Below the pieces are notes generated by a model. That model was given only the letters and a program-made list of their open reading frames with translations. It did not search any database and had not been told where the DNA came from. Shown in pieces: positions 5,538 through 56,673 of a stretch of DNA of 64,000 bases. Source of the stretch: Dehalococcoidia bacterium. Lineage in GTDB: Bacteria > Chloroflexota > Dehalococcoidia > GIF9 > UBA5629. How positions within the stretch are numbered: the stretch's first letter is position 1; every line of letters starts with the position of its first letter. The stretch lies in contig PLME01000011.1 in assembly GCA_003142375.1 (NCBI GenBank), positions 14,599 through 78,598 of the forward strand, in the 5' to 3' direction. The translations under genes and the position numbers were made by a program.

Positions 5538-5665
5538 TACCGTGTTAGGGGTATTACTGGCAACTTGATACAGGTTGGCCTGCCGATCAGATAAGTTGTA
5601 CCATTAATGGCGGACGGCAACAGTCGCCAGACTTTAATCCGCATAATTACTTAAGAAGGAAAAGC

Positions 5666-5916: not shown

Positions 5917-8184
5917 CTAGACAATGACTTCCGCCTGGTTCTTCTGCTTGATGGCGGCCTGCGCGGCAATGAGCTTGGCAATGGGCACCCGGAATGGGCT
6001 GCAGCTCACGTAGTCCACGTTAATGGCGTGGAAGAAACTTATGGAGTGGGGTTCCCCTGCCTGCTCGCCGCAGACTCCGATCGGGATATCTTGTTTGGAC
6101 CTTCTGGCCCAGAATATGGCTGTTTCCATGAGCCTGCCGACCCCTTTGATATCTATGATTTCAAATGGGTTGTTCTCCAGGATGCCGATTTCAAGATAGG
6201 TTGAGAGGAATTTCTTCTCGGCGTCCTCCCGGCTGAAAGAGTATACCGCCTGTGTCAGGTCATTAGTGCCGAAGGATAGGAAATCCGCCACCTCGGCCAG
6301 CCTCCCGGCCCTCATGCAGGCACGCACGGTCTCCATCATGGTCCCCACCTTCAGCGTGGAGCCTTCGGTGCAGCTCTTTTTTATCATTATCAGCTCCTGG
6401 GAGGTAATAACCTGGGGTATCATTATCGAGACGTCTGCCGGCGCTTCCTTCTTGGCTGCCTCTATGGCCTGGACCTGCATTAAATAAATTTCCGGATTGG
6501 TGACGGCTACGCGCACACCCCTGTGCCCGAGCATGGGATTTATCTCCTTGAGCTCTACAATACGCTGCCTGGTCTTTTCGTCGGCTGCTTCCTTTTCAGA
6601 GGGGAGAAACTCATGCAGAGGCAGATCAAGAAGCCTGATGATAATGGGCAGGCCTTTCAGCTCTTTAAACAAGGCGATGAAATCCTCTTTTTGAAGTTTG
6701 CTCAGGTGTTTGAGCGCAGCTGATTTCTGGGCGGGGGTCGCAGCCAGGATGTATTCCCTAATGGCAGATAAGCGCTCTGGCCCGCTGAACTGACGCTCCG
6801 TGCGGCAAAGGCCTATGCCTTCGGCGCCCAGCTTAATGGCCTGGGCCACCATCTCGGGGATGTCGGCATTAGCCCTGACTCCCAGCCGTTTGGCACCGTC
6901 CAGCCAGGTGAGCAGTTCCTCGAATTCCTTGATCATTACGCCCTCTTCCATGGGAAGCACACCGAGGTACACCGTGCCGCTGGTACCGTCGATGGTGATG
7001 GTGTCCCCCTTATAGATAGTCTGCCCTTTACAGGTGAACAGCTTCTTTGCGAGATCGATTAGGATATCTTCGGCGCCGCAGACGCACGGTTTGCCCATGG
7101 CCCTGGTCACGATGGCAGCGTGGGATGTCAGACCGCCCCTCGAGGTCAATACGCCGTCAGCCGCGGCAATGCCCTGGATATCGTCAGGGCTCGTCTCCGG
7201 CCTGACAAGGATGGAGGGGATGCTTTTCTTGGCCTGTGTCATGGCATCTTCCACAGTAAACACGACCTGCCCGCTGACAGCCCCGGGCGCAGCCGCCAAG
7301 CCTTTGGTCAACGGCTCATGCGCTTGAGTGGACTTGATATGTTTGTGCAAGAGCGCCCTCAGGTCATCGACGTTTAATCGGAGTATGGCTTCCTCCTGGG
7401 TGATAAGGCCCTGGTGCACCATATCTACCGCAGACCTAACGGCCGCCTGGCCGCTCCTTTTAGCCGATCGCGTTTGGAGTATGTAGAGAGTCCCGGACTC
7501 CACCGTGAACTCTATATCCTGCATGTTGCGGAAATGCTTCTCGAGGAAACTTACTTTTTGTTCCAGTTCCTTATATACCTCCGGCATGCTGGCCTTGAGC
7601 TGGGAGATGGGAACGGGCGTTTTGGCTCCGGATACGATGTCCTCTCCCTGTGCACATTCAATACATTCACCGAATAAACCGCTTTCACCCGTGCTGGGAT
7701 CACGGCTGAAGACAACGCCGGTTCCTGAGCGCGAGTCCTTATTGCCGAAAACCATGGCCTGTATGACAGCCGCGGTGCCTATATCGGAGGCAATATGGTT
7801 AAGCCGCCGGTATTCCACGGCACGCATATTGTCCCATGAATCGAAGATACGTTTTATGGCCGATCTCATGTCAGCCGCACTATTAATATTAAGTACCGTG
7901 TCCATCATGCCCGGCATTGAAATCGGCGCTGATGACCGTACCGAGACCTGAAGGCCCTTGCCAAGCTTGGCATGAGCCTGTTTTTCCAGTTCTGCCAGCG
8001 CTTGAGCGATCTCTTTTTCCGCCAGACGTCCGGTCTTTTTATATTCGTTATACCCCCCAACGGAAACCACAAACCCAGGTGGGACCGGCAAACCCAGCCT
8101 GGTCATAATCACGAGGTTAGCCCCTTTGTTACCCAATGCCGCCTTATCTTCGCAGGCACCACCAAACGAGTAAATATAATCCAT
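5917..8184 (-). CDS. ppdK: pyruvate, phosphate dikinase, compact form (PEP-utilising enzyme family)
   Basis: N-terminal GNKGANL…GLPVPPGF. Central phospho-His motif TSHAAIVTRAMG. C-terminal FGTNDLTQ and CGE…G. About 110 aa shorter than canonical PPDK in the nucleotide-binding domain. GAGGAGG RBS. Confidence 0.75.
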   Translation of the reverse strand: MDYIYSFGGACEDKAALGNKGANLVIMTRLGLPVPPGFVVSVGGYNEYKKTGRLAEKEIAQALAELEKQAHAKLGKGLQVSVRSSAPISMPGMMDTVLNINSAADMRSAIKRIFDSWDNMRAVEYRRLNHIASDIGTAAVIQAMVFGNKDSRSGTGVVFSRDPSTGESGLFGECIECAQGEDIVSGAKTPVPISQLKASMPEVYKELEQKVSFLEKHFRNMQDIEFTVESGTLYILQTRSAKRSGQAAVRSAVDMVHQGLITQEEAILRLNVDDLRALLHKHIKSTQAHEPLTKGLAAAPGAVSGQVVFTVEDAMTQAKKSIPSILVRPETSPDDIQGIAAADGVLTSRGGLTSHAAIVTRAMGKPCVCGAEDILIDLAKKLFTCKGQTIYKGDTITIDGTSGTVYLGVLPMEEGVMIKEFEELLTWLDGAKRLGVRANADIPEMVAQAIKLGAEGIGLCRTERQFSGPERLSAIREYILAATPAQKSAALKHLSKLQKEDFIALFKELKGLPIIIRLLDLPLHEFLPSEKEAADEKTRQRIVELKEINPMLGHRGVRVAVTNPEIYLMQVQAIEAAKKEAPADVSIMIPQVITSQELIMIKKSCTEGSTLKVGTMMETVRACMRAGRLAEVADFLSFGTNDLTQAVYSFSREDAEKKFLSTYLEIGILENNPFEIIDIKGVGRLMETAIFWARRSKQDIPIGVCGEQAGEPHSISFFHAINVDYVSCSPFRVPIAKLIAAQAAIKQKNQAEVIV

Positions 8185-8324
8185 GACAAGTCCTCCTCAA
8201 GTTACATTATATAGGAAAGACGTATAAATAAAAGGCCTTTTCAGTTCAAAATTCTGACCTGAAGATGCTAAATTTGACTTAACCTGTTTATAACTTTGGC
8301 CGTCCGTGATATGCTCATAATAAT

Positions 8325-8894
8325 ATGAAAAAGATAAACTGGTTTAAGCTGGGAATCATCTTTGTCCTTTTTGTGATTTTCAGTGCAGTTGTAGCTTATG
8401 CAACACAAATAGTTTTCACCAGCTTTCATTTGCCCATCCATAGGTATGAGCCTGCGGCCTACCTGACGATTTTCCTGGTTGCTCTGGTGGTGAACCTGTC
8501 ACTGATCCCGCTGCCCTTCGCGGTCTCTCTGATGATTGCTGCGGCCGCTATCTGGAACCCCATCCTGGTGGCTTTGGCCGGGAGCCTGGGAGCCAGCCTG
8601 GGGGAAATGAGCTATTACTATCTTGGATACCTGAGTAAGAAAGTTGCCATACCGGATGATATCATCGGGTACCAGACTGTGAAGTCCTGGGTCGATAAAT
8701 ACGGCATGTGGGCCATCGCCTTCCTCTCGTTCCAGCCGGTTATTCCCATGGAAATTGGTGGGCTGGTGGCCGGGCTGGCCAAATATCCCCTGGGCAAATT
8801 CCTCATCGCACTCTGGATCGGCAAATTTCCAAAATACATAATACTGATATACCTGGGATCCGCTTTAATGCACTTGATACCTGTTCTTCGTTAG
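8325..8894 (+). CDS. DedA/VTT-domain family membrane protein
   Basis: 189 aa, multi-TM, DedA-like core. Confidence 0.55.
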   Translation: MKKINWFKLGIIFVLFVIFSAVVAYATQIVFTSFHLPIHRYEPAAYLTIFLVALVVNLSLIPLPFAVSLMIAAAAIWNPILVALAGSLGASLGEMSYYYLGYLSKKVAIPDDIIGYQTVKSWVDKYGMWAIAFLSFQPVIPMEIGGLVAGLAKYPLGKFLIALWIGKFPKYIILIYLGSALMHLIPVLR

Positions 8895-8938
8895 GAGTTA
8901 CCCGCTATAACTGAATTGCTGCAGAGAGGCAAGAAATC

Positions 8939-10507
8939 ATGAATATTGGAAGTTTGCTGGATGACAACATACAGAGGTTCGGCGAATATGATTTTGTATG
9001 CTTCGAAGGTAAATGGCATTCCAATGTTGCAATAAACTTGGCTGCCAACCGGCTGGCAAATGCGCTGAAAAATCTGGGAATTGGTAAAGGGGACAGGGTT
9101 GGCGTTCAACTGTTGAATTGTCCGCAGCTAATGGAATCTTTTTTCGCCATTTTCAAAATCGGCGCTATTTTGGTGCCGGTCAACCCATCTCTTCGTTCGG
9201 AGGAATTGGCATATCTTTACCAGGATGCAGGTTTGGCAGCCCTGATCACCAGCACTGATTTCATGGACAAGATCAGGGCAGCTAAAGGGAAGGCTCCCGA
9301 CCTGAAATATGTGATCACAATAGAAAAGAAAGTTCCCCAAGATGCCCTGTCCTACGACATAATCACAGGGCGGGAGCCGGGTGAGATTGCTCTAACGGAA
9401 ACGGGCAACGACGACGTGGCCGTCATCATCTACACGGCCGGCACTACAGGCAATCCCAAAGGGGTAATGCTGACGCACTATAACTGGTTTACGCACATCA
9501 CCGGGTATTATGAACTGGTTTTACTGGACAGAAGGGGTATCGAGGTAAAAGGCAGGGAGGCGACCGTGTTTGGGGTGGCCCGTAACCGCGTATCGCTGGT
9601 TACGCTGCCTCTTTACCATGGTTACGGAGTATTCGCTATGAATCTGGAGTTCCTCACCGGTGGGAGAATGATACTGCTTTCGCGCTGGGATACTGAGGAA
9701 GCGATGAAATGCATTGAGCAATACAGGGTTAGTGAATTCCGCGGCGTTCCAACCATGTACATCCAGTTGCTTAATTACCCCGCCGCCGATAAATACGATT
9801 TAAGCTCACTGCAGGTGTGCATCTGTGGCTCTGCCCCGATGCCCCTGGAGGTCGCCCGGCAATGGAAAGCGAAGTATGGCATCGATATATGGGAGGGCTA
9901 CGGGTTGAGCGAAGCGACGACCGTCAATTGCGGTAATATAGCCGCCGGGAAGGAGCCGAGGTACGGTTCGATCGGCAAGTGCTATCAAAAATGTAATACC
10001 ATATCAATATTCGGCCCGGACGACAGGGAACTGCCGGCTGGCGAGATAGGTGAGATAGTTATCAAGGGTCCATGCGTTATGAAAGGCTACTGGAACAAGC
10101 CCCGGGAAACCGCTGAGGCCATAAGGGATGGTTGGCTTCATACTGGGGATGTCGGCCGTAAGGATGAAGACGGTTACATTTATATCACCGACCGCAAGAA
10201 AGACCTCATCATCCGCGGCGGGGAAAACGTATATCCCACAGAGGTGGAGAACGTCCTTCACAGGCATCCGCAGGTGATGGAATGTGGTGTTATCGGCATC
10301 CCGGACAGCACGTATGGGGAAGAGATCATGGCTTTTATAGTACTCAAGACCGAAGGCTCAGCCACAGAGGAAGAGCTGATAGATTTTTGCCGGGAGCAGT
10401 TGCCGGCCTTTAAAAGGCCCAAGACCATCCAGTTTATGGACTCCCTGCCCAAAAGCTCGGTAGGCAAAATTTTGAGAAGGGAATTGCGCATTAATAAACG
10501 CGGTTAA
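8939..10507 (+). CDS. AMP-dependent acyl-CoA synthetase/ligase (long-chain-fatty-acid--CoA ligase family)
   Basis: AMP-binding motif YTAGTTGNPKGVMLTH. C-terminal GWLHTGD and K at the end (PKSSVGKILRREL). Confidence 0.85.
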   Translation: MNIGSLLDDNIQRFGEYDFVCFEGKWHSNVAINLAANRLANALKNLGIGKGDRVGVQLLNCPQLMESFFAIFKIGAILVPVNPSLRSEELAYLYQDAGLAALITSTDFMDKIRAAKGKAPDLKYVITIEKKVPQDALSYDIITGREPGEIALTETGNDDVAVIIYTAGTTGNPKGVMLTHYNWFTHITGYYELVLLDRRGIEVKGREATVFGVARNRVSLVTLPLYHGYGVFAMNLEFLTGGRMILLSRWDTEEAMKCIEQYRVSEFRGVPTMYIQLLNYPAADKYDLSSLQVCICGSAPMPLEVARQWKAKYGIDIWEGYGLSEATTVNCGNIAAGKEPRYGSIGKCYQKCNTISIFGPDDRELPAGEIGEIVIKGPCVMKGYWNKPRETAEAIRDGWLHTGDVGRKDEDGYIYITDRKKDLIIRGGENVYPTEVENVLHRHPQVMECGVIGIPDSTYGEEIMAFIVLKTEGSATEEELIDFCREQLPAFKRPKTIQFMDSLPKSSVGKILRRELRINKRG

Positions 10508-12730: not shown

Positions 12731-12853
12731 TCAAAGACGGATGCGGGCTACCGATGAGATTTCAGCTAAATACTCTCATAAGGGATATTGACATATACTG
12801 CCGCTTATATTATATTAAAGCAATGGTATCTAAGGGAGGTTATAAGTTCAAGA

Positions 12854-14403
12854 TGAAAGTAGTATTTAATTCGACATGGAGAATAGTCCTTGCCCTGGCG
12901 GTGATGTTGAGTTTCGGACTGGCAAACGCCACACCAGTGCAGGCATTTGCAAACCCGGCCTTAGTAACACTTTTAGGCGCCGGGAATTTTGCGGTTCTGG
13001 CAGGAGCGGCAATTACAGATGCAGGGGCTGGTACGCATATCACTGGAAATGTTGGGGCGTACCCCATTACTGGCGCCGCTATCGGCCTAGTATGCACACA
13101 AGTGACTGGAATTATTTACCAGAGTGATGCTGCTGGCATGGGATGTTTTGTGACGGACCCTGTTAACCTGAACACGGCTATGATCAACAGGTTAGCCGCT
13201 TACACAGACGCTAACAGCCGGACAGCTGATATTACTGGCCTGGGCGGTGGTACTGTTGGCCCTCAGACTCTCGTTCCCGGCGTCTATAAATGGACTACCC
13301 CTGTGACAATAACAGGCGATCTCGTTCTGTCGGGTGGCCCCAATGCCGTTTATATCTTTGAGATAGCGGGAACCCTTGACATGGCCACCAACAAAAGCAT
13401 ACTCCTGAGCGGTGGCGTACAGGCTTCCAACATATTCTGGGCAGTCGCTGGCGCAACGACCCTACTTCCAGGCTCACACTTTGAGGGTAACATCTTGTCT
13501 GGGTCGAACATCGCCATGCAAAGTCTTGCATCTATCAATGGCAGGCTGTTAGCACTGACTGGGATCACATTTGATCACAATGCCATTATAAAGGCAGTTT
13601 TTGTGCCACCGGCCACCACACTGGCAGTACTCGGAATATCCACCCCGCGTATTGGATGCATTGCCACTGATGTGACGGTAACCGCCTTTGATGGAGCTAA
13701 CAACGTCGTTCCGAGTTACCGTGGCACCATCCACTTCACCTCAACGGATTCGGCGGCAGTGCTGCCGGCGGATTACACTTTCGTCGCCGGTGATGGTGGT
13801 ATACACACCTTTACTAACGGGGTAATTTTATCCACCGCTGGAATACAGACGGTGACAGTCATCGATGTTGCAAACGGTCTCACTGGCACCAGTTTCCAAA
13901 TCACTGTTGTTCCCTGCCAGGGTCCTGTGCCCACCCCTGGACCTGGTATAACATCACCAGTGATCTCCACGGTTGCCCCGACTCTTCCCCCATCTGGTAG
14001 AGCGATTCCTGGGGCAGGCGCACAGGGTGGTCCGGCGGCGCTGCCGAGCTTTGTAATTACTAAGCTATGCGTTGATTCTGACAATGTTACACTCTGTCTG
14101 AAAAACACCATGGCTTATTCCCAGACATTGGTAGTTATACTGAAATCAAACAATGTCGACATCGGCCAAAAAACATTTAACCTATCGCCAAATGCCGAGC
14201 TTTGTGCCTCATGGTATATAGATGCCGCACAAGCAAAAGGAAACCTCAGGGTCAATATCGGAGGCATTGTAGAGAAGGATGTTCCATCTTGCGGTGTTGT
14301 AGTGCAGCAGTCTATTGATTGGTTGCTCTGGGTGATAGTAGCACTGTTCGTCATAGCCGTCATCGGGCTGCTGCTGTACTTCCTCACGAGGAGGAGGAAA
14401 TAG
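12854..14403 (+). CDS. cell-surface protein with an ice-binding-like (DUF3494) domain, a Big-like domain and a C-terminal TM anchor
   Basis: Signal peptide MKVVFNSTWRIVLALAVMLSFGLANA. DUF3494 signature (FAVLAGAAITDAGAGTHITGNVGAYPITGAAIG). Ig-like region. C-terminal hydrophobic stretch followed by TRRRK. GGAGG upstream of the 12854 ATG. Confidence 0.7.
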
Positions 14404-14440
14404 GCTCAGCAAACGGGTACTTTCTGTTAGTATAATCTTA

Positions 14441-14477
14441 GATGGGGCACATCATATGATGTGCCCCATCTTTTTTT
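14441..14477 (+). terminator. intrinsic terminator (perfect 15-bp stem GATGGGGCACATCAT/ATGATGTGCCCCATC followed by T7)
   Basis: Perfect palindrome followed by TTTTTTT, 38 nt after the stop codon of the ice-binding-like gene. Confidence 0.75.
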
Positions 14478-14578
14478 CTATATTATTTTCATTTTTAGGT
14501 TGATGGCAGCATGGTCAAAGGCCTTCTATAGTTTCTATCGTCACGCAATTGGAATTTGTTAGGGGGGAAGCTTTGAAG

Positions 14579-14595
14579 TGGTAGGCCGTGCAGGA
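14579..14595. repeat. 17-bp direct repeat TGGTAGGCCGTGCAGGA, identical to the 3' end of tRNA-Lys (putative attL)
   Basis: Exact match to 24536-24552. The surrounding sequence differs on both sides. Confidence 0.6.
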
Positions 14596-15068
14596 TAAAA
14601 GCAAGAACTTTTTCTAAGACTTACACATTACCTCAATGATATGAGAGAGCTCATGGTCCCAAAACAAGCGCACTAAAAGGCGGTAACCGCTTGCCTCCTT
14701 TGGATATAAGACTATCAATATAGATATAGAATAGTCAAGGACGGCCATAGCCAGCAGGCTATCAGGCTGGCAGTCAATAGCGTGATGCCCACTATCCGGT
14801 GATAGTGTGCGCTATACTCGACGTCGTAATGTCTGCCAGACACATTCATCATTTCACACATCCCGATTTTTTCTAAAGTTTCAACCGGGCTATGTGTAGG
14901 CGGAATATATAATAAAAACGCTAACTATACTAACCTTGGCTAACGCTATTAAAAACTTCAAGTTGAGGCCAGGGTAATTTAATAACTGGTTCCTTTTGCT
15001 GATTACGGCTGGTATAGAAAAGGGGAGGCTCTCAATAATCGGAGGATTCTAATTATACATGGACTAAA

Positions 15069-18000
15069 TTACGGTGGTGGGGTCATCCTCACCTCGACCC
15101 AGTGTTCCTTATGGTCGTCAACAAGAGGGATGGTCTTATCGTGTTGCTCAACGCCATCCACGCTCACGCGCATCTCACCATTCCCGGCAGGCGTTTGCAG
15201 GACCGCGATGTGGTAGACCGTCTCCCGATAGCGGTAGTGCATCTTGAACCCCACCCAATCCGCAGGGAGGCACGGCGTAAAACGCAGTTTATCCACTTCA
15301 AGTGTGAGCCCCAGGAGTGATTCCACGATCAGCCGGTACATCCAGGCGGCCGAGCCCGTGTACCATGTCCAGCCGCCGCGGCCGGTATGCGACGGTGCCG
15401 CATAGACGTCGGCGGCAACGACGTAGGGTTCCACTTTGTAGGTGGCAGTCTCCTCGGTCGATCTTGCATGGTTCACCGGGTTGATCATGGTAAAGAGCTC
15501 CCACGCGCGCCGGTTGTCCCCCAAGCGAGCGAAGGCCATTGCCGCCCAGATGGCCGCATGCGTGTACTGCCCGCCGTTTTCTCTAACTCCGGGGACGTAC
15601 CCTTTGATGTAGCCGGGATTCAGCGCCGACTTGTCGAAGGGCGGATCCAGAAGTTGGATCAGCCCATGCTCGCGGCGAACGAGGCGCTCGTCCACCGCTT
15701 CCATGGCCATGCGCGAACGCTCATGATCTCCCGCACCTGAAAGAACAGACCAGCTCTGCGCTATCGAATCAATTTGGCATTCGGGGTTAACTGACGATCC
15801 AAGCGGCGAGCCGTCGTCGAAATAAGCGCGGCGGTACCACTTTCCATCCCAGCCATTCTGCTCGAGATTCTGGCGCAGTTGAGCCGCCTCCCTCTGGCAA
15901 CGTTCGACGAAAGATAGGTCACCCCTTGTACGGGCAACCTCCATAAACTGCGTGAGTACTTCATAAAGGAAAAATCCTAACCACACGCTTTCGCCTTTGC
16001 CGTGTTCGCCCACCAGGTTCATGCTGTCGTTCCAGTCACCGGAGCCGATGAGCGGCAGGCCGTGTACACCGAATTTAAGGCTATTCAGGATGGCTCGGAC
16101 ACAGTGTTCGTAAAGACTCGCTACCTCTTCAGAGCGCCCGGGCAGATCGTAATAACAGTCTTCATCAGCGTTTACCGAGCGGCCCTGGATGAAGTGGACG
16201 GGCTCATCCAACACGCCGGTGTCCCCGGTGGTGAGGACATAGCGGCACGTCGTGAGCGGCAGCCAGAGGTAATCGTCCGAACAGTGAGTACGCACACCCC
16301 GACCCGTTGGAGGATGCCACCAATGCTGAACATCTCCTTCCAGGAATTGACGGGACGCACACAGGAGCAGGTGCTCGCGCGCGAGATGCGGCCTGGCGTG
16401 GATTAGGGCCATCACGTCTTGCAACTGATCGCGGAAACCGAAGGCGCCCCCCGACTGGTAGGTTGCGCTTCGCGCCCAAAGGCGACACGCCAGAGTTTGG
16501 TATAGCAGCCAACCGTTGGCCAACACGTTGATGGACTGGTCGGGTGTTTCCACATTTACCGCACCGAGGGTGTGTGTCCAGTGCTGCCATACCACATCGA
16601 GGGCGCAGCGCGCAGCGTTTGATCCTCGAAAACGGTTGACCAGGTTTCTCGCATCGTCTACGTCTCGCCCTAGGCCGAGTCTGAAGATGATTTCACGCTC
16701 TTGCCCGGCGGCCAGATCGAAGCTCACCTGGATCGCGGCGCAGGGATCCAGGGCGGCCCCCACCTTGTTGGAAAGGCGCGTGCGCGTCATAGCGGCAGGA
16801 GCGCATAGCGTACCGTTGCGTCCCAGGAATTCAGTCCGATCGCCACTTATGGTGCGAGTCGTATCGTCCACGTCGAAGAACGCAATCCGGTCAGGGAACT
16901 CCGTGTTGTATGGGTTGTGTGCGAAGAGCGCGCCGCTATCCGGGTCAATTTCGGTGATCACGTGCATGGTCGATTTCGGTCGCAGGTCGCCAAGCACCCA
17001 TTCCACATATCCGGTAGCGGAGAGCCGGCGGGATCGTCCCGACTCGTTGAATACTTTGAGCACCGTAAACTTGATCGCTGCGTCCATAGCCACGTAAACC
17101 CATAGCTCGGAGCGGATGCCGCGCTCGGTGTGTTCAAAGACGCTGTAACCGAATCCGTGCCGGGTGACGTAAGGCGTTGCCCCGCGGCAGGGCAACGGCG
17201 TGGGCGACCAGAAGTAGCCGCTCTCTTCATCACGGAGGTAAAATGCCTCTCCTCTCGAATCGCCCACGGGATCGTTCTCCCAGGGAGTGAGGCGGAACTC
17301 GTGAGCATTCTCGCTCCAGGTGTAGGCAAGACCGCTCTCTGAGATGACGGTCCCGAAGTGCGGGTTGGCCAGCACATTCACCCAAGGAGCCGGTGTCAGC
17401 TGCCCGTGCGCTGTGGTAATAACATACTCGCGCCCATCCGGGGTGAATCCGCCCAGCCCATTGTAGAACGTCAGATCGTGGCGTGGCAACGAGGCGACCG
17501 CCAGGGGTTCGGAGCGGCGGGTTCGGGTCGGGATAAGGAGGGGCACGGTTACTTCCACCTGACTACGACCGTTGATCTGGTCCACCAGCGACCCCCGGCT
17601 GTCGCTGATGATGGCGCGAGCGACCGCTTGGATTAGGATGCGATCCTCCTCCGCTATCTGCTCCGCAGGTCTTACGAAAATGCCGCCGGGTCGATCGGTC
17701 ACGTTGGCTTCGATGCCTGCGGCAATGAGCCCCATGACCTGGTCGTGGAGGAGTTGCCGGTAACCTGCGTGATCTTCGTTCCAGATCACCAGGTCCACCG
17801 CTAGTCCTTTGAGATGCCAGTACGCGTGGGCCTGCACGAGTTGGCGCACCAGATCGATATTGGCCGGATTTTCAATCTGCAGCAGCACAATCGGCAGATC
17901 GCCGGAGATGTCGTAGCTCCAGAGACCGGATTGCCCCCGGCGGTTCTTGATGAGGACACTTGGGTCGGCTCGCAGCGAAGCATTAGCGTAGATGATCGAG

Positions 18001-21000
18001 CTGGCAAGGTGCCCATAGAGTTGCGCATCGGCTGCGGAGGCATTGAACTGGCGCAGCAGCACATGGCTATGTGTCCATGCCAAATCAAAGACGCGGTCCG
18101 CGAGACGCCGATCCTGGTATTTTCCCACAAGACGTAAGGCTGCACCGCGGGTTTCACCGATGCCGGTGACAATGTTTATCGTTGCCGATTCTTCGGGATC
18201 CAGCGTTATCCGATAGCGGATGGCTACAATCGGATCGAGCACAGAGCCCTCGCTACCCGAGAGCGCTTCAGTAAAAACACCAGCGCCCCCGCTCATCGCC
18301 TGTGGATCGGCGACGGTGTTACCGCGGCCGATGAACTGCATGCGATCGGTCTCATAGGAAACATCTCCGATCTCCGCTCCATGCACGACCATCAGGTGAA
18401 ACATCCAGGGCGCCTGCTCGCCCTGGGAGCGGGGCCGGCGAGTGCAGAGGATCGCTCGCTGCCGGCGGATGATCTCGGTCTGGACAAATAGATTGCTGAA
18501 CGCCGGATGCAGTGCGTCGGCGGCAGGCAGTGCCAGAACCACTTCCGCATAACTGGTAACATCGATCGCTCGGCGCGTACGCGCGCGGTTGGTGACGCGG
18601 ACTCGGCGTAGTTCGATATCATCCTCGGGCGAAACAGCGATCTCGGTATAGGTTTCATAGTCGTGGTCGCGACAGCGAAACTCGGCTCGCCCTTCCGAGA
18701 AGATCGCCTCAAAATGCTTCGACCGTTTGAGCGCCGGCTGATAGGCCGTTGACCAGAATTCCCCACTCGTCACGTCGCGGAGGTAACAGAACGTGCCCCA
18801 GTTGTCGCAGGTGCGGTCTTCGCGCCAACGGGTAACGGCGAGGTCCTTCCAGCGGCTGTAACCGCCGCCGGCACTGGTGATCATCACATGGTACCTGCCA
18901 TTCGAGAGCAACTGCACTTCCGGGTTTGGCGTGTCGGGGCTTGTGAAAACGCGAATCGGCGTCTCCGAAGCGCTGGAAGCCGTATGATACTCGGAGAGCT
19001 CGGAGGTGTGCGCATAGAACGCTGTCGCCTTGGGGATTCGCTCCTGCAGCAACAGCATGGTCGCCTGGAACAAGGGATCCGACTCGAATCGCTTCTGCAT
19101 CTGGCGGTCCAGGAGCAGATGCGCCAAAGACAGGAGACTCATGCCCTGGTGATGGGCCATGAAGGACCGAACCACGACCCTCGATTGTCCGCGCGGCAGA
19201 TGCGACGGAGTGTAGTCGATCGCCTCGTAGAAGCCATACCGGGTTTCAAAGCCTTCAGCAGCGAGTCGTTCGAGGTTCAGGCACGCCTCCTCGGGCGCCA
19301 CCATCAGCGCCAGTGCCGAGGCATAAGGCGCAATCACCAGGTCCTCGGCGAGCCCGCGTTTGAGCCCCAGGCCGGGGACACCAAAGGCGCTGTATTGGTA
19401 GTTGAGATGCACATCGATGGCATTGTAACCACATTCCGAAATGCCCCAAGGCACCCCGCGTTTTTTCCCATATTCGATCTGCCTGGCCACCGCCGCCTTA
19501 CAGGTCTGGTCGAGCAGCGTGGGTTCGTAGGTCGGCATCACCAGGAGCGGCATCAGGTATTCGAACATCGAACCGCTCCACGAAAGGAGGATCGGTTCTC
19601 CACCGGCGGTAGTCAGCAGACGTCCCAGGGCAAACCAGCTCTCCTGCGTCAGTTGTCCCTGCGCAATCGCTACGAAATAGGAAAACCTCGCTTCCGAAGC
19701 CAGGAGATCGTAGTAACTGGAGTCCCGCTGGCATTCACCGACATGATAGCCGATAGCTAGCAGATGACGCGTCTCGTCAAACAGAAAGTCATATTTCATC
19801 CGGGCGAATGCGTCGCATTGCGTGGCAAGTTCTTTGATAGCCGCAATCCTTGTTCTGGCGTGCTGGCTGGCTGCCGTGATGAGGCGTTGAAGTTCACCAA
19901 GCCAAGCGCTTTCCGCCGACGTGGTGGCAGAGCTGAGCCGATGTACGATCGCCGGCAGGAGCTTCACCTCCAGTGCTGCCAGTTCGTGCAATGTTGGGAT
20001 CTCGTCGAGATCGGGAAAGTCTCCGAGGCTATTCGGAGAAGAAAAGAGCACTGTCCATGGAGCGAGAAACGTCAGCTCATCGAGGGCATCTCGACATTGC
20101 TCGGCGAAGGCGTGGGCCCACCACCTCAATTGGCTCTCGGTGTCGGCATCGAGAGCTTCCACGTCGGTGACCACTACCGCAGCGGACGTTGCCAGCTGAT
20201 CAAGGCACAGCCGCGAAGCCATGAGCGTGGTGAGTTGGGAACGGGTCGCGGACTCCAGATCCTGCTGAAGTTGAGCGAGTTGGGCCGGGGCGTATACTTC
20301 CGGAGCGGCGGCCGCCGCGTCTATGACAATCCTGAGAGTGTCGCTTAAGCCCTCAAAGAATCGCGTTTCCAGGATCTTGTGATCGGCAAGTCCGAGCAGA
20401 CCCGGCCGCAATGTCAGCAGATGGCCTGCGAGGTTCCCGCTGTCCACCGACGAAATGTAGAGGGGCAGCAGTGGTTTCAGAGATTGCGTATCATACCAGT
20501 TGTAGAAGTGGCCTTGGTGTCGTTCCAGGGTTTCCATGGTGCAGAGTGCCTTCGCTGTACGTTCGATGAGTTGTCGGGCCGAAAGGTAGCCGAAGTCATA
20601 CGCGGACAAATTCGCCAGCAACGCAAGGCCCATGTTGGTAGGCGATGTGCGATGTGCGATGACCGCAACAGGATTCTCCTGATAGTTATCAGGCGGCAGC
20701 CAATTATCTTGCGGGCCGATGAAGGTCTCGAAGAACGCCCAGGTTTTCCGGGCAAGCTTCCGTAGAAAGAGGGTCTGATCCACTGTCATCCCTGCTCGGC
20801 GGCGAGCGAGCGGCCGACTGATCCACCAGGCGATAGCGGGGGAGCCAAACCAGAGGCACAGTATGGGCCCAGCCACAGCCAACACGGCCGGTTTGGATGC
20901 AGCAAGCGTGATCACCACAGCAACGGCAACGAGCGGGCCGATCCACATTGTCCGACATGAGCCGACAAGGTCCGTGCGGCTATTGCGATCCGAGTTGCCC

Positions 21001-23822
21001 GACGGATTCCATTGGAGCAGTCGCTTATGCGTGATCAGCATCCGCCAGGCGGTGCGCACCATGGCATCCAGACTGAAAAACGCTTCGTATGGCAGGCATA
21101 CGAGCGTGAATGCAGCCTGAACGAAGTGACGGCGGGCCGAGCGCACTGCGGCAGCGAGGTGCAGTCTCAGAGTCACATCGACTGGCTTTTGAAGCGCATT
21201 CAGGGCCGAGGCTATCAAAGAAGGAATCAGGATGATGCCTATCACCGCCAATGTCCAGAACCAGGCCGATGGTAACACGGTCCAGCCCAGAAGCAAGAGG
21301 AGTGTCAATGCCGTGGGGGTGAGGCTACGCCGCAGGTTGTCGAAAATCTTCCATCTCGACAGCCCCGAGAGTGGATTTTTCTCCAGGCGTGAGTCGGGGC
21401 CGGGAACGTTAGGCATCACCCACTGCGCAATCTGCCAATCCCCGCGAATCCAACGGTGCCGGCGGCTGACGTCCGCACTGTAGAGGGAGGGGTTTTCCTC
21501 GTATAGCGGCACATCACTCAATGACCCGGACCGGATGTAACACCCTTCCAGAAGATCGTGGCTGAGGATCCGGTTATCGGGGAAACGCCCGCCCAACACC
21601 CGCTCGAATGCATCAACATCATAGATGCCCTTGCCGATGAACGAGCCTTCACCGAACAGGTCCTGGTAAACATCGGAAACGGCGCGCGTATACGGATCGA
21701 TGCCGAGCTCATTGGCGCACATGCGCGCATACCGCGATCGGTTCGTGCCGGGGAGGCTCACTGCCACCCGTGGCTGAAGAATGCCGTACCCCGCAACAAC
21801 ACGCTGCTGGTCTTCGTCGTAACGTGCACGATTGAGTGGGTGCGCCATGGCGCCCACAAACTGCCACGCCGAATCGCGTGCAAGTTGCGTATCGGTATCC
21901 AGGGTGATCACGTACTTCACGTCCGATAAGACCGTGGTTTCACCGACGATGAGAGCGAAGCGATCACTTGATCCTCCGCGCAAAAACCCATTCAAATCGG
22001 CAAGCTTGCCGCGCTTGCGCTCGTAACCCATATAGATCCGGTCGCACGGATTCCATCGGCGAGGGCGATGAAACAGGAAGAAGGTATCGCCTTCTTGACT
22101 CCTGTACTTTTCGTTCAGCTCTTCGATTCTCTGCCGGGCCAGCCGCAACAGCGGTTCGTCTTCCGGCAGCGTTTTTTCGATGGCGTCGTGAAAATCAGTG
22201 AGCAAACCGAAGTGGAGGTGATCATCCCGATTTGCCAGGAAGCGGACTTCCAATCCCTCGATCAGGTCCTCAATGTTTTGAGTGCTTGTGAGAATCGTCG
22301 GGACCACAACCAGAGTTCGCAATTCCTGCGGGATCCCTTGGGAAAAATCCATGCGCGGCAGCGGTTGCGGCGTCGCCAGCAACGTCGCCAGCCAGTTCAC
22401 CACCGCTACCGCCAGATGACTGGCGCAGAGAATCGATAGGAGTCCGATCAGCCCCAATGCCCAACCCTGCAACCCATCGGCGTACGCCTTCGCCGCGAAG
22501 CACCCGGCTAAGATCGCTGTCATCAGAAGGATGGTGCCGCTATACAGCAGGAAAGGAAACCGGCGGCTGGCTTTGCGCAGAACCTCAGCAGACGATAAGC
22601 GCACCTCCGTCATTCGTTCGAGCTGCGCCAATCCCTCGTCGATCAGGTAGAAGCCGACGTGCGCTGCGCGTTCGTCGCCGCCTTTCCGTGCCGCTACCTC
22701 ATTTGCCAGATTGATCGCTTTGCGCGCCACCTCGCTCTCGGAGTAGGGACAGCTCTTCGCAGACTTCTCCACGACGTGACGGTAGCGATCACGGGTGGCA
22801 AAATCCATCTTGCCGTAGACGCCGCCAGGATCCTCACTCAGGATCTGCTCAACAATGCTCATCGTCTCGACAAACTCGCGCCAGTCCATCGCGCCCAGTA
22901 AGCGGAGGCTGCCGATGCTGTTGCTCATCGAGACCTGGTCGGCAGTTTGTTGTTGGTTCTCCGAGCGCACCAACTGTTCGATGGTCAGTCCAACCTCAGA
23001 CAGTCTCTGTTCAATCCAGGTAAGCGGCACTGCAAGAGCGGGACCCTGGCCCTGCAAGCGACGTGTGAGCTCCGCAACAAACGAGCTCACCATCGGGGGG
23101 TTCGACCGTGCCATGTCGGAGATCGCCAGAATCAGGCTCTTTGAGTCCTTCTCGGCGATCTCCGTCATCTGGTCGGCCCAATAGTCGGCACGGTTTCGAT
23201 AGATCATGTGGGCGGCGATCAGGGCGGCAATCCGCCGAACATTCTCGATCAGGACCAGGCGCAGCATGATGGGGATAGCCCAAAGTTCGCCCAATTTCAG
23301 GGTGGTCACCGACTGGTAGGCGGCTACGAAACTGCTGAGGTTTTCCGGGTACAACCGTCCATCGCCGTGCGAGATCATCTCCAGAGCGATGTCATACACC
23401 CGCGGAAGCCCAGCCGATGGGCCATTCAGCAAGTGCGGCAGCTCACGGCTATAACCCTTCGGCAAGTATCGCTTAGCCATTCGAATCTGTTCCTCAATCA
23501 AATAGAAATTGTCGAGCAGCCATTCGCCGGCCGGTGTAATCCGGCGGTCTGCCTTGACGTGCTCTGTCAGCAGGTTGTGGACTTCAAGCAGGAGACTTTC
23601 ATTCTCGGCCAGCCGCGCCAGAAGGCGGTCCCGAGGGCGTCCAGGCTTCAACTGGTGCTCACCCGCAAGGATCTTCCCATGCTGCTCCATCTGATCGTCA
23701 CTGAACAGTTCTGATCGAAGGGATAGTTCATCGCCGGCATACTTCTGTGCCAGGTCTTTTTCGCAGAGGCGCGCCCACATACGGGAAAATGTCCCGCGAA
23801 CGGTCTTGCTGCTTATCTTCAT
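15069..23822 (-). CDS. cyclic beta-1,2-glucan synthase-like giant protein (2917 aa; GT84 glycosyltransferase + GH94 phosphorylase-like domains)
   Basis: Size matches NdvB/ChvB/Cgs. N-terminal EWLLDNFYLIEEQIR-type motif. A TM cluster near residue 420. GT84-like core (MGYERKRGKLADLN … DTD). C-terminal GH94-like region with GDWND. AAGGAG RBS. Confidence 0.7.
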   Translation of the reverse strand: MKISSKTVRGTFSRMWARLCEKDLAQKYAGDELSLRSELFSDDQMEQHGKILAGEHQLKPGRPRDRLLARLAENESLLLEVHNLLTEHVKADRRITPAGEWLLDNFYLIEEQIRMAKRYLPKGYSRELPHLLNGPSAGLPRVYDIALEMISHGDGRLYPENLSSFVAAYQSVTTLKLGELWAIPIMLRLVLIENVRRIAALIAAHMIYRNRADYWADQMTEIAEKDSKSLILAISDMARSNPPMVSSFVAELTRRLQGQGPALAVPLTWIEQRLSEVGLTIEQLVRSENQQQTADQVSMSNSIGSLRLLGAMDWREFVETMSIVEQILSEDPGGVYGKMDFATRDRYRHVVEKSAKSCPYSESEVARKAINLANEVAARKGGDERAAHVGFYLIDEGLAQLERMTEVRLSSAEVLRKASRRFPFLLYSGTILLMTAILAGCFAAKAYADGLQGWALGLIGLLSILCASHLAVAVVNWLATLLATPQPLPRMDFSQGIPQELRTLVVVPTILTSTQNIEDLIEGLEVRFLANRDDHLHFGLLTDFHDAIEKTLPEDEPLLRLARQRIEELNEKYRSQEGDTFFLFHRPRRWNPCDRIYMGYERKRGKLADLNGFLRGGSSDRFALIVGETTVLSDVKYVITLDTDTQLARDSAWQFVGAMAHPLNRARYDEDQQRVVAGYGILQPRVAVSLPGTNRSRYARMCANELGIDPYTRAVSDVYQDLFGEGSFIGKGIYDVDAFERVLGGRFPDNRILSHDLLEGCYIRSGSLSDVPLYEENPSLYSADVSRRHRWIRGDWQIAQWVMPNVPGPDSRLEKNPLSGLSRWKIFDNLRRSLTPTALTLLLLLGWTVLPSAWFWTLAVIGIILIPSLIASALNALQKPVDVTLRLHLAAAVRSARRHFVQAAFTLVCLPYEAFFSLDAMVRTAWRMLITHKRLLQWNPSGNSDRNSRTDLVGSCRTMWIGPLVAVAVVITLAASKPAVLAVAGPILCLWFGSPAIAWWISRPLARRRAGMTVDQTLFLRKLARKTWAFFETFIGPQDNWLPPDNYQENPVAVIAHRTSPTNMGLALLANLSAYDFGYLSARQLIERTAKALCTMETLERHQGHFYNWYDTQSLKPLLPLYISSVDSGNLAGHLLTLRPGLLGLADHKILETRFFEGLSDTLRIVIDAAAAAPEVYAPAQLAQLQQDLESATRSQLTTLMASRLCLDQLATSAAVVVTDVEALDADTESQLRWWAHAFAEQCRDALDELTFLAPWTVLFSSPNSLGDFPDLDEIPTLHELAALEVKLLPAIVHRLSSATTSAESAWLGELQRLITAASQHARTRIAAIKELATQCDAFARMKYDFLFDETRHLLAIGYHVGECQRDSSYYDLLASEARFSYFVAIAQGQLTQESWFALGRLLTTAGGEPILLSWSGSMFEYLMPLLVMPTYEPTLLDQTCKAAVARQIEYGKKRGVPWGISECGYNAIDVHLNYQYSAFGVPGLGLKRGLAEDLVIAPYASALALMVAPEEACLNLERLAAEGFETRYGFYEAIDYTPSHLPRGQSRVVVRSFMAHHQGMSLLSLAHLLLDRQMQKRFESDPLFQATMLLLQERIPKATAFYAHTSELSEYHTASSASETPIRVFTSPDTPNPEVQLLSNGRYHVMITSAGGGYSRWKDLAVTRWREDRTCDNWGTFCYLRDVTSGEFWSTAYQPALKRSKHFEAIFSEGRAEFRCRDHDYETYTEIAVSPEDDIELRRVRVTNRARTRRAIDVTSYAEVVLALPAADALHPAFSNLFVQTEIIRRQRAILCTRRPRSQGEQAPWMFHLMVVHGAEIGDVSYETDRMQFIGRGNTVADPQAMSGGAGVFTEALSGSEGSVLDPIVAIRYRITLDPEESATINIVTGIGETRGAALRLVGKYQDRRLADRVFDLAWTHSHVLLRQFNASAADAQLYGHLASSIIYANASLRADPSVLIKNRRGQSGLWSYDISGDLPIVLLQIENPANIDLVRQLVQAHAYWHLKGLAVDLVIWNEDHAGYRQLLHDQVMGLIAAGIEANVTDRPGGIFVRPAEQIAEEDRILIQAVARAIISDSRGSLVDQINGRSQVEVTVPLLIPTRTRRSEPLAVASLPRHDLTFYNGLGGFTPDGREYVITTAHGQLTPAPWVNVLANPHFGTVISESGLAYTWSENAHEFRLTPWENDPVGDSRGEAFYLRDEESGYFWSPTPLPCRGATPYVTRHGFGYSVFEHTERGIRSELWVYVAMDAAIKFTVLKVFNESGRSRRLSATGYVEWVLGDLRPKSTMHVITEIDPDSGALFAHNPYNTEFPDRIAFFDVDDTTRTISGDRTEFLGRNGTLCAPAAMTRTRLSNKVGAALDPCAAIQVSFDLAAGQEREIIFRLGLGRDVDDARNLVNRFRGSNAARCALDVVWQHWTHTLGAVNVETPDQSINVLANGWLLYQTLACRLWARSATYQSGGAFGFRDQLQDVMALIHARPHLAREHLLLCASRQFLEGDVQHWWHPPTGRGVRTHCSDDYLWLPLTTCRYVLTTGDTGVLDEPVHFIQGRSVNADEDCYYDLPGRSEEVASLYEHCVRAILNSLKFGVHGLPLIGSGDWNDSMNLVGEHGKGESVWLGFFLYEVLTQFMEVARTRGDLSFVERCQREAAQLRQNLEQNGWDGKWYRRAYFDDGSPLGSSVNPECQIDSIAQSWSVLSGAGDHERSRMAMEAVDERLVRREHGLIQLLDPPFDKSALNPGYIKGYVPGVRENGGQYTHAAIWAAMAFARLGDNRRAWELFTMINPVNHARSTEETATYKVEPYVVAADVYAAPSHTGRGGWTWYTGSAAWMYRLIVESLLGLTLEVDKLRFTPCLPADWVGFKMHYRYRETVYHIAVLQTPAGNGEMRVSVDGVEQHDKTIPLVDDHKEHWVEVRMTPPP

Positions 23823-23835
23823 TTTTGATGTCTCC

Positions 23836-24300
23836 TTGTACCACTTCTCAAGTCACAATTGCCAGGGTGTGAAGAGGGAGAATTACCTCTGGAACTGGCG
23901 GCCGGTAGCCGAGAGCACTGTGAGATCGCGTGTGGTTGTATTCCTTTCTCTACATATCCACAAGCACCTTGGCCTCAAGCAGCGTTGTGAAGATGTCTCG
24001 ATTGAGCAACTCGTCCCTCAGTTTCCCGATGAATGACTCGATGTAGCCATTCTCCGACGGACTCCCCAGTTCTATGAACAACGCCCTCACTCCAAGTCGT
24101 TCCAACCATTGACGTACGGCTCTGGCTGTGAACTCAGGGCCATTGTCTGATCTGATGTGCCGGGGAGTGCCTCTGATGACGAAGAAGGTACACAACTGAT
24201 CAATGACGTTCTGTGAGCTGATACGACGGTTAACCACCATGCCCAGACATTCTGTGGTGTACTTGACCTGCTCCCAATAAGTGTACCACTTTTTAAGTTA
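23836..24300 (-). pseudogene. IS3-family (IS2-group) transposase OrfB, integrase-core fragment: N-terminally truncated, with an in-frame amber stop replacing the conserved Trp
   Basis: Translation …HIRSDNGPEFTARAVRQWLERLGVRALFIELGSPSENGYIESFIGKLRDELLN…LLEAKVLVDM*RKEYNHTRSHSALGYRPPVPE. The DM*RKEYN position corresponds to DMWRxEYN in intact relatives. No N-terminal half or OrfA is present. Confidence 0.75.
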
Positions 24301-24535
24301 AGTGATTGAGCCCGTGAGGGCATCCCCTTTTATGTACCAACCGTAATGCTAGTTTTGCGGGCCATGAGTCCACGAGTGCGTGGAGAGTCGTTACCATCTC
24401 GTGATAGTATGCGTTGTACCCTGCATCCAAAGTCGTTTCAGATAAGTGCAAGCCATAGAATCAGTGTGTCGGCAGGACCTGTGATCTGACACACTGATTC
24501 GTCTGTTAAAATGAAGTCGACCTGGTGGGTTTGTA

Positions 24536-24611
24536 CTTGGTAGGCCGTGCAGGAATCGAACCTGCGACCCACTGATTAAAAGTCAGTTGCTCTACCAACT
24601 GAGCTAACGGC
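24536..24611 (-). tRNA. tRNA-Lys (anticodon TTT)
   Basis: 76-nt cloverleaf GGGCCGTTAGCTCAGTTGGTAGAGCAACTGACTTTTAATCAGTGGGTCGCAGGTTCGATTCCTGCACGGCCTACCA. Anticodon loop CTTTTAA. Confidence 0.9.
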
Positions 24612-24721
24612 CCATTCACGGGATGTGGTTTCAGGAGAAACCGACTAAAAAGTTTATCACAATCTTATTCGCAGAGACAATTAAAGGCGTGACAATAGTT
24701 GCTGAAGCTTCAAATAAAAGG

Positions 24722-24796
24722 TGGAGCGGGTGAAGGGATTCGGACCCTCGACGTCTTGCTTGGGAAGCAAGCACTCTACCGCTGAGTTACACCCGC
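24722..24796 (-). tRNA. tRNA-Gly (anticodon CCC)
   Basis: 75-nt cloverleaf GCGGGTGTAACTCAGCGGTAGAGTGCTTGCTTCCCAAGCAAGACGTCGAGGGTCCGAATCCCTTCACCCGCTCCA. Anticodon loop TTCCCAA. Confidence 0.9.
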
Positions 24797-55707: not shown

Positions 55708-56673
55708 TTATTGGCGGCCGTGGTATTTAGTGTATTCTTCCTTTAAGTGCTTATTGGTGACGTGTGTATAGACTTGCGTAGTACGGATGCTTTCATGCCC
55801 CAGCATTTCCTGCACAGAGCGCAGGTCTGCGCCCGAAATCAGCAAATCTGTGGCAAAGGAATGTCTAAGGGTATGCGGGTGCGCATCGATGGGTAGACCG
55901 GCCTTTTTGGAGTATTTTTTAACTATGCGCTCAACCGAACGGGCGGTTAATCTCATTTTTTCACCGGCTTTATCGTTAATTTTTCGGCCCCCATATCTGA
56001 TGAATAGTGGCAAATAGCTATCTTTTCTCACGTCAAGGTAGCGTTTAATCCAGTCAGCGGCGATATCGGACAGGAAGACTACACGTATTTTATTGCCTTT
56101 GCCTCTGACCCCGAATTCTTTCCTGTCCAGATTAATCTGATCGCGGTTAAGCTTTACCAGTTCTGATACCCTCAAACCGGTGCTGAACAGGGTTTCCAGT
56201 ATGGTCCTGTCTCTTAACCCAGCGTCATCAGATATCTCGGGACTGGCCATTAAGCGGATCAATTGCTCATTGTTAAGAAAATTGACCATGCGCGGATTCG
56301 CCTTCGGAAGGTCGATTTTCTCGGGATTCAGGACGTCAATATCGCGTTTCACACCAAGATAGCGAAGAAAAGAGCGTAGAGCAACAATATGATAGGTCTG
56401 GGTATTTTTATTAAGCTGTTTGCCGTTCTTGGCCCGGAAAGAAGCTAGATAAATACGGAATCTTCTGACTGTATCCAAATTGATGGAAGAAGGGGAAAGG
56501 GGTAAAGAGTTTTCTTCAAGCCAGGTGATAAAACGGGATAAATAGTGCTTGTATTCCAAAATAGTTAACTGGGATAGGGATTTTTCAATGAGCATGTAAT
56601 CAAGGAAATCATCGGCAAGCAACTTTAGAGTTTGGATATTGATTGGATCAGCCATATTATTATTATAATTCAC
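55708..56673 (-). CDS. tyrosine site-specific recombinase, XerC/XerD family
   Basis: SAM-like N-domain. C-terminal R…HxxR…Y (HTLRHSFATDLL…TQVYTHV). Confidence 0.75.
   Translation of the reverse strand: MNYNNNMADPINIQTLKLLADDFLDYMLIEKSLSQLTILEYKHYLSRFITWLEENSLPLSPSSINLDTVRRFRIYLASFRAKNGKQLNKNTQTYHIVALRSFLRYLGVKRDIDVLNPEKIDLPKANPRMVNFLNNEQLIRLMASPEISDDAGLRDRTILETLFSTGLRVSELVKLNRDQINLDRKEFGVRGKGNKIRVVFLSDIAADWIKRYLDVRKDSYLPLFIRYGGRKINDKAGEKMRLTARSVERIVKKYSKKAGLPIDAHPHTLRHSFATDLLISGADLRSVQEMLGHESIRTTQVYTHVTNKHLKEEYTKYHGRQ

Follow-up and report, generated by a model that had tools for sequence, protein, structure and literature searches.

In the Islander approach the two ends of a genomic island are marked by a regenerated tRNA gene and by the displaced fragment of that gene, and an integrase filter is applied (Hudson, Lau & Williams 2015, PMC4383910). 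In Dehalococcoides, the ssrA islands lie downstream of the tmRNA gene, carry direct repeats of ~20 bp of its 3′ end and hold strain-variable cargo (McMurdie et al. 2011, PMC3146451). Some of their copies are thought to be without integration genes and fixed, and CcrB-like serine recombinases are found in a six-gene integration module (PMC3146451). Here we describe an interval of related design in a 64-kb stretch (the window, 64,000 nucleotides) of contig PLME01000011.1 from a Dehalococcoidia bacterium. The interval, positions 14579-24554 beside a tRNA-Lys gene, is likely what is left of a site-specific integrative island, decayed and no longer mobile, from a family whose target in a clade of peat and soil Dehalococcoidia is the 3′ part of tRNA-Lys(UUU). 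Its sole intact gene, cgs, is predicted to encode a cyclic β-1,2-glucan synthase.

The locus resembles the Islander tDNA (tRNA gene) islands in its intact tRNA, its displaced direct 3′ fragment and its foreign content, and a related element with a tyrosine integrase occupies the same tRNA in a sister species. It differs from them in being a remnant without an integrase, which would not pass the Islander filter, in the shortness of the fragment (17 bp) and in its rearranged interior. The Dehalococcoides ssrA islands are the nearest precedent from the same bacterial class, and they too lie beside a small structured RNA gene and are bounded by repeats of its 3′ end. There, however, the target is tmRNA and the recombinase a serine recombinase, whereas here the target is tRNA-Lys and the recombinase, known from the sister-species element (L022), is a Xer-like tyrosine recombinase.

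A repeat of the tRNA-Lys 3′ end and its interval

ARAGORN finds four tRNA genes in the window, among them an intact tRNA-Lys(UUU) with an encoded CCA (24538-24613, minus strand; ARAGORN anticodon ttt; Rfam tRNA, 76.2 bits). This gene is the proposed integration target, that is, the attB side with the regenerated tRNA, and its sequence is identical in the window and in the contigs L011, L013, L014 and L022 discussed below. The 17-mer TGGTAGGCCGTGCAGGA, which corresponds to tRNA positions 60-76 (the last T-loop base, the 3′ strand of the T-stem, the 3′ strand of the acceptor, the discriminator and CCA), has exactly two copies in the window by exact match scan, both on the plus strand and in direct orientation. 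One lies within the tRNA gene (24538-24554, tRNA nt 60-76). The other, at 14579-14595, has no tRNA similarity beyond its 17 bp, and we read it as a 3′ piece of tRNA-Lys, displaced to the distal limit of the island. The two boundary features used by Islander, an intact tRNA at one end and a direct-orientation fragment of the same tRNA at the other, are thus both present.

No further copy of TGGTAGGCCGTGCAGGA was found in the window with up to two mismatches allowed (0.01 expected from shuffles). Searches with longer parts of the tRNA, by Hamming distance and short-BLAST, revealed no degenerate tRNA-Lys copies, and no copy with four or fewer mismatches near a tRNA. At both copies similarity ends sharply at the repeat edges and the flanking sequences are unrelated; the left flank of the distal copy is also unrelated to the element arm described below. 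A leftward extension of the distal repeat (TTTGA-AG) did not rise above chance when compared with shuffles.

A sequence-only reading of this DNA had proposed that the last 17 nt of tRNA-Lys recur exactly about 9.9 kb away, with unrelated sequence on either side, and that the interval holds one intact 8.75-kb gene, an IS3 pseudogene and two non-coding stretches. We confirmed the repeat, at a distance of 9.96 kb, and its abrupt edges, although the tRNA-proximal copy had been placed 2 nt off, at 24536-24552 instead of 24538-24554. The inventory was also reproduced by open reading frame (ORF) analysis, Pfam and frame translation. The one intact gene between the repeats is cgs (15069-23822, minus strand, 2917 amino acids (aa)). 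Neither non-coding stretch (14596-15068 and 24299-24537) holds a Pfam-recognisable ORF, and Rfam scans of the two returned two tRNAs and sub-threshold noise only.

The transposase remnant (23854-24281, minus strand; Pfam rve/rve_3, frame translation) is 5′-truncated and comprises the C-terminal half of the rve DDE domain of the IS3 family. Its coding similarity runs from ~24281 down to ~23870, covers rve profile positions 42-102 and is interrupted by an in-frame stop at 23950-23952. With IS3-family insertion sequences (IS) it shares this C-terminal rve DDE part and the ...CA terminus. Unlike them it amounts to only ~430 bp, carries the in-frame stop, lacks orfA, a left end and a target-site duplication, and is hence not a functional IS. 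No inverted partner of the IS terminus was found in the window. The terminus (...GGTACA) directly abuts the ribosome-binding site (RBS) of cgs. An imperfect direct repeat (15/17), TGTACCACTTYTYAAGT, flanks the fragment at 23837-23853 and 24282-24298; the first copy is the IS terminus beside the cgs RBS, and the second marks the point where the transposase similarity ends. Between the fragment and the element arm lies a non-coding stretch (24299-24449) without ORF or Pfam match and with short weak matches to L013 only. We considered it as the end of a second IS copy and rejected this, since similarity past the first ~17-25 bp was not significant (47/300 shuffles reach it).

A further motif, GTGATAGTRTGCGYTRTAC, occurs in both non-coding stretches of the island (14797-14819 and 24399-24417). 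It is also intergenic in relatives (L014 2268-2290; L013 ~5616-5663 and ~2681-2732) and shows no covariation; a promoter-like or regulatory role confined to the clade is conceivable.

Empty and occupied tRNA-Lys sites and the element arm

The strongest indication of how such an interval could arise comes from a sister species. Metagenome contig Ga0187861_10000142 (L022), returned by a metagenome scan, is from the species that L013 and L023 represent, the three being 99.9-100% identical on both sides of the tRNA-Lys site. Compared with L013 and L023, L022 carries a 6022-bp insert at tRNA-Lys (L022 3115-9136; 3067-9184 with the repeats). On either side of the insert stand the same 48 bp, a perfect direct repeat that covers the 3′ part of tRNA-Lys as far as the anticodon loop. 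Among the genes of the insert is one for a tyrosine recombinase of 325 aa (Pfam Phage_integrase, 1.6e-41), which starts 148 bp from the displaced fragment and is Xer-like, scoring under the XerC/XerD cut-offs in NCBIfam. The cargo of the insert consists of an FMN reductase and a DnaE2-like (error-prone) polymerase III alpha subunit with a DUF6504 protein.

The tRNA-proximal 88 bp of the L022 insert are homologous to the 88 bp directly 3′ of tRNA-Lys in the window (24450-24537), which are 87-91% identical to L011, L014, L021 and L022. Because these 88 bp lie within the L022 insert and are missing from L013 and L023, they appear to be element DNA, an arm of the element, and L013 and L023 appear to represent a true empty site. 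Their position inside the insert contradicts the view that the 88 bp, conserved as they are in L011 and L014, are an ancestral tRNA trailer. Taken together, the comparison indicates that tRNA-Lys is an active integration site, a hot spot, in this clade.

Within the arm lies a perfect inverted repeat of 13 bp, GACACACTGATTC (24458-24470 and 24488-24500), which resembles the anticodon-arm sequence GACCCACTGATT of the tRNA, and a third copy of the GACACACTGATTC-type motif lies near the integrase end of the L022 insert. These motifs are plausible, putative recombinase-binding sites. Between L014 and L022 the arm regions are 95% identical whereas the housekeeping flanks are only 80% identical, an indication that the element has moved horizontally from one species to another. 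Neither the arm nor the L022 integrase was found in scans of viral contigs.

Further traces of the element lie just inside the distal repeat. A backbone module with a small GC hairpin (14651-14738) is 91% identical to L022 8935-8869 and 82-88% identical to L021 2652-2566. It is followed by a 76-bp non-coding module (14744-14819), 76% identical to L014 2215-2290, which is in the region downstream of tRNA-Lys in L014; inspection by eye found no compensatory changes in it that would suggest RNA structure. The first of these modules, 67-88 bp long, lies 113 bp from the arm in L021 and L022, while in the window it is inverted, sits at the far end of the island and has lost the 113-bp spacer. Of the traits of the L022-type family the window thus retains the 88-bp arm with its 13-bp inverted repeat, and lacks the 48-bp identity block and the Xer-like integrase beside the fragment. 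With an identity block of 17 bp, an inverted and relocated module and a missing spacer, the island has evidently been rearranged.

Relatives of the window were found through the neighbouring 493-aa CoA-binding protein and comprise four species, all Dehalococcoidia metagenome-assembled genomes (MAGs) from peat or soil with 87-93% aa identity. The loci of relatives were compared over 10 kb each, from contigs that include CAWJIA010000021.1, OY970123.1 and Ga0187866_1008655. Coming from the right, all four species are homologous to the window as far as tRNA-Lys and no further. None, including the three species represented by L011, L013 and L014, carries cgs at the tRNA-Lys locus. Beyond the tRNA, L011 has a 2-oxoacid dehydrogenase/lipoate cluster, L013 has DinB and others, and L014 (chromosome OY970123.1) has an aldo-keto reductase, a methyltransferase and a CARDB protein. 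In L014, ~1.9 kb (7404-9318) separates tRNA-Lys from tRNA-Gly, which are adjacent in the other species; this stretch holds an Old-Yellow-Enzyme-type NADH:flavin oxidoreductase and a 117-aa ORF.

The foreign cyclic glucan synthase gene

The product of cgs is, by its domains, a full-length member of the Cgs/NdvB/ChvB proteins (Pfam and PDB matches). Pfam recognises three families (in order of accession PF06165, PF10091 and PF17167), with the GH94 supersandwich at 4e-172, the GH94 catalytic domain at 3e-127 and Glycoamylase at 4e-19. Against PDB, the Agrobacterium Cgs/NdvB chains solved by cryo-electron microscopy (8rf0/8rf9) match with E=0, the cyclization domain 8wy1 matches residues 1016-1598 (2e-127), and GH94 phosphorylases match residues 2124-2913. 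In its N-terminal glycosyltransferase region the sequence shows DTD and RRHRW motifs. The protein is thus similar to Cgs/NdvB/ChvB of Agrobacterium, Sinorhizobium and Brucella in length (2917 aa compared with 2799-2818 aa for the PDB chains) and in possessing the GH94 phosphorylase, cyclization/'glucoamylase' and N-terminal membrane glycosyltransferase regions. It differs in that its host is an uncultured member of the Chloroflexota, its gene stands alone on a decayed island and its activity is a prediction. No gene for an NdvA/ChvA-type exporter adjoins cgs.

The N-terminal 1200 aa of the protein share 70-77% identity with proteins that NCBI lists as cyclic beta 1-2 glucan synthetase, from MAGs of Desulfobacterota, Betaproteobacteria, Nitrospirota and Acidobacteriota, and 87-89% with unnamed ENA proteins. 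The genes for two of the latter are on contigs ERZ25039459 (L019) and ERZ25039461 (L020); at the DNA level the window is 93% identical to the first and 90% to the second, over 15080-23837 only, that is, over the ORF and 15 bp with the RBS. The flanks of cgs in these two contigs are unrelated to the window and contain no tRNA; their tetranucleotide correlation is 0.48-0.55 to the window and 0.87 to each other.

In composition, too, cgs is foreign to the window. Its GC content, 0.591, is the highest of the 43 long ORFs of the window (0.504 ± 0.037 for the other 42), its GC at third codon positions (GC3) is 0.691 compared with 0.574 ± 0.072 in window ORFs, and its codon usage lies unusually far from the average of the window, given the length of the gene. 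Across 16-24 kb, the tetranucleotide correlation to the remaining window falls to 0.15-0.35, compared with 0.6-0.83 elsewhere. To the window background cgs correlates at 0.30, the relatives at 0.96 and the L022 island at 0.83, while the signature of cgs correlates at 0.57-0.73 with L019 and L020. Atypical content, as in Islander islands, is therefore found in cgs. The non-coding DNA within the island has a GC content of 0.43-0.50, and this non-coding backbone is not atypical. Since the 90-93% identity is limited to the ORF and the signature is foreign, cgs is a recent horizontal import from another lineage.

In L019, the closest cgs copy outside the species lies beside transposase debris (ISAZ013-type DDE, IS21 IstB; L019 1448-7628), in mobile-element-rich surroundings. 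The more distant copies L024 and L025 have ordinary chromosomal contexts. No tRNA or integrase was found near any of these four other copies (L019, L020, L024 and L025).

Contigs of the window's own species were available from seven samples (JGI 3300036885, 3300036886, 3300037086 and 3300037091; SRR11569181; SRR7151603; ERZ27254254). In the population of JGI 3300036885 (L001/L006), a 56-bp frameshifting deletion (window 22246-22298) splits cgs into ORFs of 2394 aa and 514 aa, and another population (L002/L008) has a 6-bp in-frame gap. Unless the deletion is an assembly artefact, it suggests that cgs is under relaxed selection in some populations; given the frameshift in one of them, cgs is therefore not indispensable.

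Expression of cgs could come from outside the island. The tRNA-Lys gene lies just downstream of tRNA-Gly(CCC) (24722-24796, minus strand; ARAGORN), and directly upstream of tRNA-Gly a 12/12 match to the sigma-70 consensus promoter (TTGACA, 16 nt, TATAAT; 24833-24806, minus strand) would serve the tRNA-Gly/tRNA-Lys unit. As cgs, the IS3 fragment, tRNA-Lys and tRNA-Gly share one strand, and as the DNA from tRNA-Lys to cgs showed neither a canonical terminator nor a promoter, read-through from this promoter into cgs is possible.

Course of events, alternatives and significance

From these observations we infer the following course. An element whose attP contained a copy of the tRNA 3′ end would have recombined with tRNA-Lys by means of a tyrosine (Xer-like) integrase. 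Recombination would have regenerated the tRNA, set the 88-bp arm directly 3′ of it and moved the original 3′ fragment to 14579-14595. The implied junction of the empty site would read ...GGAAGCTTTGAAG|TGGTAGGCCGTGCAGGAATCGAACC..., and that of the circular element ...GGGTTTGTACT|TGGTAGGCCGTGCAGGA|TAAAAGCAAGAAC.... The interior would later have been remodelled: the integrase was presumably lost, the backbone module was inverted at the far end and the IS3 copy decayed to a fragment. The sole intact cargo, cgs, was acquired horizontally and would have come either with the element or by later capture beside the IS3 end; we lean slightly towards capture after the element. With no integrase in cis, the island is fixed in the populations sampled. 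On this account the island is a remodelled mosaic and not a clean single insertion.

The central proposal of the sequence-only reading, integrase-mediated insertion at the 3′ end of tRNA-Lys followed by loss of the integrase, agrees with several independent lines of evidence: the empty and occupied sites of the sister species with their tyrosine integrase and 48-bp repeat, the homology of the arm, the lack of an integrase remnant, the absence of cgs from the relatives and its foreign character. Its expectation of an empty site at which TrmO would adjoin the ice-binding-like gene was, however, disappointed in the genomes reached, where no close orthologue of the ice-binding-like gene was found and different genes lie beyond the tRNA. 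Nor is its term 'fitness-type' for the island supported, and cgs is frameshifted in one natural population.

Several observations weigh against reading the interval as such a remnant. No empty site was seen in the window's own species, in which all contigs from the seven samples carry the island at 99.9-100% identity; for this species none is seen because the relatives all differ in the genes beyond the tRNA. In tblastx comparison of the window with the downstream flanks of the relatives, paralogue-level matches only were obtained, and the left flank is syntenic with no relative, so that the start of core chromosome at 14578 cannot be confirmed independently. The interval holds no integrase or integrase fragment, as judged by Pfam on the ORFs, a six-frame look at the non-coding DNA and tblastn with the proteins of the L022 island. 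The identity block is 17 bp, compared with 48 bp in L022, and the place and orientation of the 67-88-bp module are wrong for a simple L022-type element. Finally, the GC step lies at the ORF borders (15069 and 23822), 0.5-0.7 kb inside the repeats. A contrast of ~60% with 45-50% GC, as had been estimated by eye, is hence about right in size, but it follows the cgs ORF and not the repeat boundaries.

Two of these points have neighbouring observations. The first feature of the left flank, just outside the island, is the terminator of the ice-binding-like gene, a perfect 16-bp palindrome followed by a T-run (14440-14471). That gene (DUF3494; 12754-14403) has a low GC3 of 0.49, and it has no close orthologue in a collection of 5.8 billion proteins (best ~50% identity, with partial coverage). 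The left flank may itself be accessory DNA. As to integrases, tblastn with the L022 integrase gave a single match in the window, at 55726-56565, outside the island. A 321-aa ORF there (55708-56673, minus strand) shares 24% identity with the L022 integrase along 290 residues and is probably a chromosomal Xer-type recombinase that is not part of the island.

The alternative that survives best is a variant of the island itself and competes only with the view that the island was remodelled and cgs possibly captured later. It holds that cgs was the original cargo, that the whole 9.96 kb entered in one recombination with a 17-bp attP/attB block, and that only the integrase was lost afterwards. The repeat is indeed clean and exact, its inner edge falls in the T-loop, a position within the tRNA that is plausible for integrases with such targets, there is one cargo gene only, and island cargo often differs from the backbone in composition. 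Yet an intact family member with the same arm uses a 48-bp block extending to the anticodon loop, one of the backbone modules lies inverted in another place, similarity to the cgs copies elsewhere ends precisely at the borders of the ORF, an IS3 terminus sits at the 5′ breakpoint, and no other cgs copy adjoins a tRNA or an integrase. We regard a single event as possible and a good deal less probable than insertion followed by remodelling.

Much less probable is that there is no island at all, in which case tRNA-Lys would be a mere synteny breakpoint, the 17-mer a chance match or an unrelated relic, and cgs a product of illegitimate or IS-mediated recombination. Such a view could draw on the different genes that each relative has past the tRNA, on the absent integrase and on the IS3 end that abuts cgs. 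An exact 17-mer, however, is expected by chance at ~1e-5 per 64 kb, and this one is in the correct direct orientation and matches the tRNA 3′ end exactly, with an element-derived arm beside the tRNA and element modules just inside the distal copy. We consider this reading quite unlikely. That the distal 17-mer is a leftover of a duplicated tRNA-Lys gene, a tRNA pseudogene, is the least credible alternative: with a deletion of 22 nt, the six bases that directly follow the 17-mer, TAAAAG, align with the region of the anticodon loop, but so short a match (6 nt) may well be due to chance, nothing else there resembles a tRNA, and a pseudogene explains neither the element arm nor the integrase island of the sister species.

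If insertion followed by remodelling is taken as the preferred account, a broader picture may tentatively be drawn. Peat and soil Dehalococcoidia might harbour an undescribed family of tRNA-Lys-targeting tyrosine-integrase elements, marked by the 88-bp arm with a hairpin that mimics the anticodon arm, which would shuttle varied cargo between species (in L022 an error-prone DnaE2 cassette, in L011 possibly the metabolic genes past the arm). In the species of the window, the remnant of such an element would have fixed a recently imported cgs, which, possibly expressed by read-through, would make its host a cyclic-glucan producer in the Chloroflexota. We offer this picture as a speculative one.

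The mechanism of the island is in itself textbook, and the island is of an ordinary kind. It nevertheless provides a concrete case, with clear bounds, of the way in which large single genes enter the genomes of uncultured Dehalococcoidia in peatland, and the tRNA-Lys hot spot of the clade comes with an intact, integrase-bearing relative in L022. It also documents, by 90-93% DNA identity to copies in compositionally different genomes, a recent transfer of an 8.75-kb cgs gene across lineages. Most of what is known of cyclic glucans comes from Proteobacteria, in which they act in osmoadaptation and host interaction. An intact Cgs in the Chloroflexota is notable for the biology of the cell envelope and of osmoprotection in peat.

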